A stretch of DNA of 40,520 nucleotides from Escherichia phage phiYIO1-1. Positions 22,303 through 22,392 of the stretch are shown here, one piece after another (position 1 is the first letter of the stretch; each line of letters starts with the position of its first letter). A program made the translations under genes and the position numbers. The DNA lies in the sequence record PP079210; one strand, given 5' to 3'. The notes beneath the pieces are model-generated. The model saw only the letters and a program-made list of their open reading frames with translations, had not been told where the DNA came from and did not search any database.

Positions 22303-22392
22303 ATGTTTTACTTACTTACAGCCTTGGGTCTATTTGTTAGTTTCTGGGCGATTATATTATTAACCGGACCATGCAGTCCTTACGACAGATAG
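22303..22392 (+). CDS. Small hydrophobic peptide ORF between T-phi and gene 11
   Basis: 29-aa ORF (MFYLLTALGLFVSFWAIILLTGPCSPYDR) with GTGAGGA RBS, not in the track; one predicted transmembrane helix. My recollection is that T7 has almost no spacer here, so treat as putative. Confidence 0.3.
   Translation: MFYLLTALGLFVSFWAIILLTGPCSPYDR

Follow-up and report, generated by a model that had tools for sequence, protein, structure and literature searches.

What, if anything, is encoded in the short spacer that separates the late terminator from the tail genes of a T7-type phage? The question is raised by Escherichia phage phiYIO1-1 (sequence record PP079210), whose 40,520-nucleotide (nt) stretch of DNA, hereinafter designated the window, comprises the whole genome of a K1F-like podophage of the T7 type (genus Kayfunavirus) and has the gene order of T7. 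A small open reading frame (ORF) of 29 codons plus a TAG stop (MFYLLTALGLFVSFWAIILLTGPCSPYDR; 22303..22392, + strand, ATG at 22303-22305, TAG at 22390-22392) lies here, with a T-phi-like terminator hairpin on its 5′ side and gene 11 on its 3′ side. A first-pass annotation made from the letters alone had described a 29-amino-acid (aa) ORF with a ribosome-binding site between the late terminator and the tail genes, and had remarked that it could equally be non-coding. The sequence and the ORF list bear out the coordinates, the placement and the signal, a Shine-Dalgarno GAGGA (22293..22297, +) located 5 nt before the ATG. The remark on non-coding DNA does not hold, since a translation signal and conservation of the frame in relatives are both present. 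As judged from sequence comparison, the small ORF is very probably a real protein-coding gene that is kept by purifying selection.

A reading frame conserved in three phage lineages

Two alternative in-frame starts, ATG 22297 (31 aa) and TTG 22282 (36 aa), have no usable Shine-Dalgarno sequence. When the genome sequence is shuffled, ~0.04 ATG ORFs that have 29 or more codons and a Shine-Dalgarno sequence are expected per 110 nt; the single sequence is thus only suggestive, and it is the conservation in relatives that lifts the ORF above chance. Using tblastn, we find full-length homologues at the identical position in 76 phage records. Allele A1, the window's own version, is present in 14 records, and allele A2 (MFLIYTGLALFVLFWAYLLPSSPSSPYDR) in ~45 Kayfunavirus records, its DNA being ~54% identical to A1 between flanks that are ~99% identical. 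Allele B (MFIVLSAVSLAVATMLYVVVTGPCSPYDK) occurs in 6 Klebsiella Przondovirus phages and allele C (MYYLLCVTLLLFASFWCYVLATGPVSVAERRDNANSK) in 17 Klebsiella/Proteus Molineuxvirinae phages of 44-46 kb. When the alleles are searched against a six-frame ORF database of the window, A2, B and C match this ORF alone (E = 2e-9, 6e-6 and 3e-6, respectively).

The homologous ORFs span 29-37 aa, and the order capsid, terminator, ORF, tail tubular A is kept in every case examined, even though the gp11 proteins of the three ORF-carrying lineages are only 26-45% identical. Every homologue has an AGGAGG-type Shine-Dalgarno sequence 4-7 nt before its ATG. The stop codon lies in the Shine-Dalgarno sequence of the tail gene in alleles A2 and B as it does in the window (TAAGGAG and TAAGGAGG), and in lineage C it is located 17 nt inside the tail gene, so that the ORF overlaps the gene-11 start. 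Over the 401 bases that surround the small ORF, Escherichia phages BUCT788, vB_EcoP_LNA3 and vB_EcoP_F are 99% identical to the window. Three further records with 87-99% DNA identity to this region are assigned to other hosts, namely PV615262.1 (Acinetobacter phage vB_Aba_01KA), MT350292.1 (Enterococcus phage EFA-1) and MK610268.1 (Hafnia phage yong1); these host labels look doubtful, or the phages are contaminants of enrichment cultures.

Conservation of the ORF and of its frame in relatives, the check proposed in the first-pass annotation, comes out on the side of a gene: across the three lineages, none of the 18 distinct DNA versions has a break in frame 0, with frame 1 interrupted in 14 of the 18 and frame 2 in every one. 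Within groups, dN/dS (the ratio of nonsynonymous to synonymous rates) is 0.19 for the window versus contig L020, 0.28 for a Przondovirus pair and 0.13 for a Molineuxvirinae pair. Between A1 and A2, synonymous sites are saturated (proportion of synonymous differences, pS, ~0.9; nonsynonymous, pN, ~0.33) and 20 differences fall at third codon positions versus 10 and 10 at the other two. Substitutions are mostly synonymous or exchange one hydrophobic residue for another. In the peptide alignment M1, P23 and S25 are invariant and L10 nearly so; the best-conserved part is the tail, (T/S)(G/S)PxSPYD(R/K), whose codons, when A1 of the E. coli phages is set against B of the Klebsiella phages, differ almost exclusively at synonymous positions. 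Divergence is faster in the membrane anchor than in the tail. An RNA element at this place is rejected on the Rfam scan, which finds no family over the ORF and a single sub-threshold match at the terminator hairpin, together with the lack of conserved structure in the alignment fold over the ORF (consensus energy -0.44 kcal/mol, no covariation).

A predicted membrane helix followed by a conserved tail

The product was initially described as a single hydrophobic helix, and prediction agrees. Residues 1-21 have a summed Hessa insertion energy of -2.8 kcal/mol and a mean Kyte-Doolittle value of 2.5, and the AlphaFold2 model consists of one helix (predicted local distance difference test, pLDDT, >90) that breaks at TGP. 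The peptide may thus be divided into a predicted transmembrane helix (residues 1-21) and the conserved tail TGPCSPYDR (residues 21-29). Negative summed Hessa energies are retained in every version, and charges occur at the C-terminus only. These predictions make it likely that the peptide is membrane-inserted. The guanine-plus-cytosine (GC) content of the small ORF is 0.389 compared with 0.499 for the genome, which ranks it among the 2.5% of 90-nt windows with the least GC, as its Phe, Leu, Ile and Tyr codons would in part lead one to expect.

Searches of protein databases return next to nothing. PHROGs gives no match at E up to 10 for allele A1 or the Pipis variant of A2; in Pfam, searched with A1, A2, B and C at E up to 10, only allele B has a sub-threshold hit, to the PetC membrane anchor; NCBIfam, PADLOC and the PDB sequence profile yield nothing meaningful. 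When the 31-aa version is run with phmmer against 1.84 billion representative proteins, one match is obtained (E = 5e-4), which lies in a hydrophobic part of a protein of 164 aa; we take it as compositional rather than as a homologue. Among 15 billion collected proteins there is no exact copy of the A1 peptide, and A2 and B are present only as 'hypothetical protein' in a handful of phage records. A blastp-short search against all six-frame ORFs of the window finds no paralogue among the holin or spanin membrane segments. Full-text literature searches that covered the motif GPCSPYD and a phage accessory-gene screen (bioRxiv 10.1101/2023.04.06.535777) turn up no mention of the ORF.

A lipoprotein of the o-spanin (Rz1-like) type was considered and rejected. 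The lipobox [LVI][ASTVI][GAS]C does not match, as the Cys of A1 and B follows T-G-P, which puts a Pro at -1. In A2 and C the corresponding residue is not a Cys, and the mature part of such a lipoprotein would be only 6 residues.

An optional cassette with clean ATG-to-ATG boundaries

The gene is optional. As a stand-in for the genus we took the GenBank phages whose holin is ≥90% identical to that of the window; about 60 of the ~224 Kayfunavirus-type records so defined, or about a quarter, are carriers. Likewise, 4 of 24 Kayfunavirus contigs in IMG/VR carry the small ORF, and nearly all the others have a spacer of 14-21 nt. The description of this spacer in the first-pass annotation as almost empty in T7 fits the wider group, as none of 56 other, more distant Studiervirinae loci has any ORF between terminator and gene 11; where it is recognised, the T-run of these loci lies 10-38 nt from the gene-11 ATG. 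In IMG/VR, a degenerate DNA pattern for TGPCSPYD retrieves three Kayfunavirus contigs and two chance matches in an unrelated gene, and a stricter DNA pattern adds only two phage-sized contigs from metagenomes. A host or plasmid origin of the small gene is rejected, there being no match in 5,426 complete E. coli genomes or in PLSDB plasmids.

Carriers and non-carriers differ between terminator and gene 11 by a clean insertion or deletion of 97-101 nt that runs from ATG to ATG. In K1F, which does not have the segment, the terminator is followed directly by gene 11, leaving a clean ~97 nt gap versus the window. A Shine-Dalgarno/ATG unit equivalent to that of the small ORF serves gene 11 in the ORF-less relatives. 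The ORF-less K1F/ST31 type reads GCTTAAAGTGAGAGGAGACTTATG followed by GCTCAA, which equals the Shine-Dalgarno/ATG context before allele A1 in contig L020, and a second ORF-less type (contig L019) reads GCTTAAGGAGGGCCTATG followed by GCTCAA, nearly the context before allele A2 (GGAGGGACTATG). That each ORF-less type matches one allele suggests repeated loss. In Przondovirus, the cassette measures 99 nt and is bounded by a perfect 15-nt direct repeat, AGGAGGCTTTATGTT, one copy of which is left in the ORF-less relatives. The flanking repeats indicate that the cassette comprises the ORF body, the stop and a second copy of the gene-11 initiation region. Recombination between the two copies would delete it precisely.

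The gp11 protein is 100% identical in carriers and non-carriers, and allele A1 is found with different tail-fibre modules (a 1064-aa gp17 in the window, two smaller genes in ZG49), indicating that the gene tracks neither gp11 nor receptor specificity.

A separate observation concerns the upstream junction. In four Molineuxvirinae loci (L005, L008, L036 and L037, positions 780-800), the sequence from terminator to ATG, TTTTGCTTAGGAGGGAAC, nearly matches that of Kayfunavirus A2, TTTTGCTTAAGGAGGGACT, and the terminator stems and tail tubular A proteins (26% identity) of the same phages are very different. A nearly shared junction between such divergent neighbours suggests that the cassette moved between subfamilies together with its junction.

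Late expression by terminator read-through

The upstream neighbour of the small ORF is gene 10A, encoding the major capsid protein (21066..22109, +), as identified from the ORF list and the annotations of relatives, which also define a 10B-like extension frame of the capsid gene on the same strand, ending at TAA 22238-22240. The segment between the gene 10A stop and this TAA (22110-22240, +) is almost invariant across relatives and is the frameshift-extension region of the capsid gene; its counterpart in EcoDS1 is labelled 'region of similarity to gp10B', and in several records it is a small gene of its own, named 'head protein' or 'hypothetical protein'. The extension stop adjoins an intrinsic, T7-type late terminator (22243..22283, +) recovered by both the terminator scan and the minimum free energy (MFE) fold, in which its G+C-rich hairpin of 17 pairs, followed by a run of 7 T, is the dominant structure. 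This terminator, near-invariant in sequence among relatives, is the counterpart of T7 T-phi, and the ATG of the small ORF is placed 19 nt 3′ of its T-run.

On the other side, the TAG stop overlaps the Shine-Dalgarno AGGAGG of gene 11 (22391..22396, +), a layout that allows translational coupling. Gene 11, encoding tail tubular protein A (the adaptor), occupies 22401..22967 (+; ORF list and relatives) and is the next cistron on the same read-through transcript; its true start is ATG 22401, matching K1F gp11.

The phage RNA-polymerase promoters are recognised as a repeat (families D1/D2, CTAAACTATCACTATAGG) with 10-11 copies in the genome. The nearest one upstream of the small ORF precedes gene 10 (20934..20959, +) and the next one downstream follows gene 12 (25342-25367). 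The repeat scan of the window finds no copy between 20959 and 25342, so the small ORF and genes 11 and 12 depend on terminator read-through from the gene 10 promoter, and the small ORF would be made only late, together with gp11 and gp12. On the T7 map of Dunn and Studier, genes 11 and 12 are reportedly transcribed in the same manner. A scan for sigma-70-type promoters detects no promoter-like site upstream on the ORF strand and none overlapping the ORF on either strand.

A proposed membrane partner and a possible role in conflict

Taken together, we consider the small ORF to be, with reasonable probability, a genuine, translated and optional late gene for a 29-residue single-pass inner-membrane micro-protein acting via a membrane partner. 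By analogy with known small proteins, it is also rather probable that the peptide acts by binding such a partner. In size class (29-49 aa), single transmembrane helix and very short polar tail it resembles AcrZ, MgtS, MgrB, KdpF and CydX; these bacterial small regulators of the inner membrane are too small to act alone and are expected to work by helix-helix docking on a larger membrane protein. Unlike them, it has no homology in Pfam, NCBIfam or PDB sequences and is encoded by virulent phages only.

In the proposed mechanism, the helix (residues 1-21) would enter the inner membrane once the ribosome has let the peptide go. An N-out/C-in topology is probable, as suggested by the positive-inside rule from Lys and Arg residues that are exclusively C-terminal (three in lineage C), which would place the conserved tail at the cytoplasmic face of the membrane. 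Being too small for more, the peptide would be left with self-association or with docking on another membrane protein, and we propose that it docks by helix-helix contact and its tail motif onto a putative membrane-embedded target. The putative outcome would be protection of the infected cell at late times, either against a host effector of exclusion or abortive infection that acts at the membrane or against competing phages.

Lysis timing, superinfection exclusion and defence inhibition were named in the first-pass annotation as candidate functions. A conflict-type, conditional role of the kind proposed here is, tentatively, the single most likely class. It is suggested by a gene that is optional and repeatedly lost, by alleles that are 46% apart in 99%-identical backbones and by an anchor that diverges faster than the tail. 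The gene resembles accessory cassettes ('morons') and exclusion proteins such as T4 Imm/Sp and HK97 gp15 in several ways: its site between conserved genes of collinear genomes is fixed and may be occupied or empty, it deviates in base composition from the rest of the genome (GC 0.39 versus 0.50), its diverged alleles sit in near-identical backbones and its predicted product is a membrane protein. Unlike morons, it has no promoter and terminator of its own, the sole terminator being the upstream T-phi-like one; it borrows the gene-11 initiation region and read-through transcription. It further departs from T4 Imm/Sp and HK97 gp15 in its late rather than early expression, in the far smaller size of the peptide and in the absence of homology.

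Several points weigh against a membrane micro-protein with this kind of role. Frequent loss shows that the gene is dispensable on laboratory hosts. Superinfection-exclusion and anti-defence genes are mostly early, and late expression after a terminator is unusual for them. Translation and membrane location rest on comparison or prediction throughout; the mechanism is drawn by analogy, with no homology to any characterised protein, and the partner is putative. The topology is weakly determined, as most alleles have one Lys or Arg and the Pipis and Zappy variants have none. Finally, the A2 copy of vB_EcoP-22664UKE3-2 (L039 801-896) has a frameshifted tail (…SSPSSPMTAKE, 31 aa) in place of …SPYDR, which means that the tail is dispensable, that this copy is decaying or that the sequence contains an error.

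A bolder and more doubtful proposal is that the peptide founds a class of late phage membrane effectors, in which a 29-residue helix-plus-tail would neutralise a membrane-embedded host immunity or exclusion effector, or block the envelope-spanning DNA-entry channel of competing T7-like phages. In this view, duplication of the gene-11 initiation region on either side of an AT-rich insert would have created the gene de novo, and recombination through the conserved terminator and Shine-Dalgarno flanks would have carried it between genera. Should the target indeed be host defence or the entry machinery of competitors, the gene would matter for host range and for the design of phage cocktails; should the peptide only tune lysis or gene 11 expression, it would be a modest addition to the T7 gene catalogue.

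Alternative explanations

Among the alternatives, a lysis-timing factor survives best, though we regard it as unlikely. The late membrane peptide would modulate the gp17.5 holin as an antiholin or co-holin, or leak protons to set triggering. Late expression with the structural genes and the predicted small, single-pass membrane nature of the product would both suit such a factor, an optional gene is compatible with a tuning role, and lysis control is the commonest known job of late small phage membrane proteins (holins, antiholins, single-gene lysis peptides). Optional modulators are indeed known among holins and antiholins (T7 gp17.5, a class II holin; T4 RI; lambda S107), which the peptide resembles as a late, small phage membrane protein. 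However, the window already contains a complete lysis set, comprising a holin (36023-36217), two spanins (36820-37263 and 36920-37195) and a candidate lysozyme ORF (8610-9514), and the small ORF is 13.6 kb away from the lysis cassette. An A1 carrier (IME177) and A2 carriers (vB_Eco_1RS, Esher2) share one holin at 100% identity, and phages that are not among the listed carriers (e.g. PRF-SP5) have a holin that is 95-100% identical. The holin does not, therefore, co-vary with the peptide across alleles and likely non-carriers, which counts mildly against lysis timing. The peptide also has no match to a holin or antiholin family in PHROGs or Pfam, and its tail is not the charged C-terminal domain typical of holins.

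Two related readings are rejected. The peptide is not itself a holin: at 29 aa it is half the length of the phage's own 64-aa holin, its tail has 8-9 residues with one Asp and at most one Lys or Arg, and its gene is outside the lysis cassette. Nor is it a sole-lysis peptide. As a very short membrane peptide with a key proline it does recall the single-gene lysis peptides phiX174 E and phage M Lys (37 aa), and P23 and S25 are invariant here. Through a transmembrane helix that contains the key proline, phiX174 E and phage M Lys inhibit the membrane enzymes MraY and MurJ, respectively. Those peptides belong to ssDNA and ssRNA (single-stranded DNA and RNA) phages that have no holin-endolysin system, in contrast to the holin and spanin genes and candidate lysozyme ORF of the window, and there is no homology.

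A type I toxin is likewise rejected. In length and hydrophobicity the peptide is similar to TisB (29 aa), Ibs, ShoB and Hok, from which it differs by a proline/serine-rich tail instead of a charged amphipathic helix and by the absence of an antisense-RNA locus. No toxin match is found in Pfam or NCBIfam, no match to the small gene in E. coli genomes or plasmids, and no structured RNA at the locus.

It is quite improbable that the ORF is a cis-acting leader, in which ribosome traffic into the gene-11 Shine-Dalgarno sequence would tune translation of genes 11 and 12 and the peptide would be a by-product. The stop that overlaps the gene-11 Shine-Dalgarno sequence, or the ORF that overlaps the gene-11 start in lineage C, would suit a leader, as would the resemblance of the cassette to a duplicated gene-11 initiation region. 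Against it stands purifying selection at the amino-acid level (dN/dS 0.13-0.28), with hydrophobicity, length and the P-x-S tail kept despite synonymous saturation; a transmembrane helix and tail conserved across 46% DNA divergence are not needed by a leader. Moreover, the ORF-less relatives use the same Shine-Dalgarno sequence directly for gene 11, and the RNA folds show no structure that joins the ORF to the Shine-Dalgarno sequence of gene 11.

It is very improbable that the peptide helps tail or virion assembly, for instance by serving gp11/gp12 as a chaperone or an assembly site at the membrane. The place directly before gene 11 is invariant in three lineages despite gp11 identities of 26-45%, the stop lies in the gene-11 Shine-Dalgarno sequence or beyond the gene-11 start, and the initiation regions of the ORF and of gene 11 are near-identical, implying similar output. 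Yet gp11 is the same with and without the ORF and most relatives build their tails without it, and a very hydrophobic helix is unlikely as a chaperone for a soluble complex. T7-type tails are not known to require a membrane step as they assemble on the portal.

Least probable is that the spacer is non-coding and contains either an ORF by chance or an RNA element. In favour of this one may cite the roughly 1-in-25 chance level of the single sequence, the fact that most annotators did not call the ORF and the absence of the exact peptide from the 15-billion-protein collection; it is contradicted by the frame, length, Shine-Dalgarno sequence and hydrophobic character kept in three lineages and, for RNA, by the Rfam and alignment-fold results.

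Annotation of the locus in related phages

Most tblastn matches have no annotated feature beneath them. Where a feature exists, it can be displaced. The coding sequence annotated in Pipis (CPT_Pipis037, L001 770-874) is in another frame and starts from a TTG inside the terminator stem (LRGFFCL...); on comparison, the frame conserved elsewhere is the apparent family frame, not the one annotated in Pipis. In ZG49, gene 11 (L123 23174-23770) is over-extended to an upstream in-frame ATG at 23174, equivalent to window position 22371, which has no Shine-Dalgarno sequence; the small ORF of this phage, at 23106-23192, is overlapped at its 3′ end by the over-extended gene. Both entries are likely mis-annotations caused by an unrecognised small gene. 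The homologues thus appear to constitute a mostly unannotated family of micro-genes in T7-type phages, encoding a predicted single-pass membrane peptide.

T7-type phages are among the best-annotated viruses and are widely used in therapy against K1 E. coli and Klebsiella, yet the gene has mostly been missed. The case shows that a gene of 29 codons can be validated by comparative data alone, and the natural ATG-to-ATG deletion alleles, together with three or four diverged alleles, provide a small and clean system for the study of membrane micro-proteins in late infection.

Further features of the genome

A second tiny hydrophobic ORF, of 25 aa (MTDLQLLALWLGALAVFTLIQRRRG; 4915-4992, +), has a Shine-Dalgarno-like GGAG upstream and sits in the interval from the RNA polymerase gene (2009-4690) to the promoter copy at 4986. 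A tblastn search of phages with this ORF returns no match even in near-identical genomes, the query probably being masked by the low-complexity filter.

A 33-nt unit is tandemly duplicated at 12748-12813, with copies 91% identical, within an ORF that ends at 12858. This ORF just precedes a 727-aa ORF (12849-15032), located where ZG49 has its DNA polymerase gene. Near both genome ends (222-336 and 40441-40489) are arrays of a 14-nt unit, CCTACACCTACAGT, and its variants (family D3, with D10 at 40469-40489), which resemble the repeats adjoining the terminal repeats of T7-type genomes.

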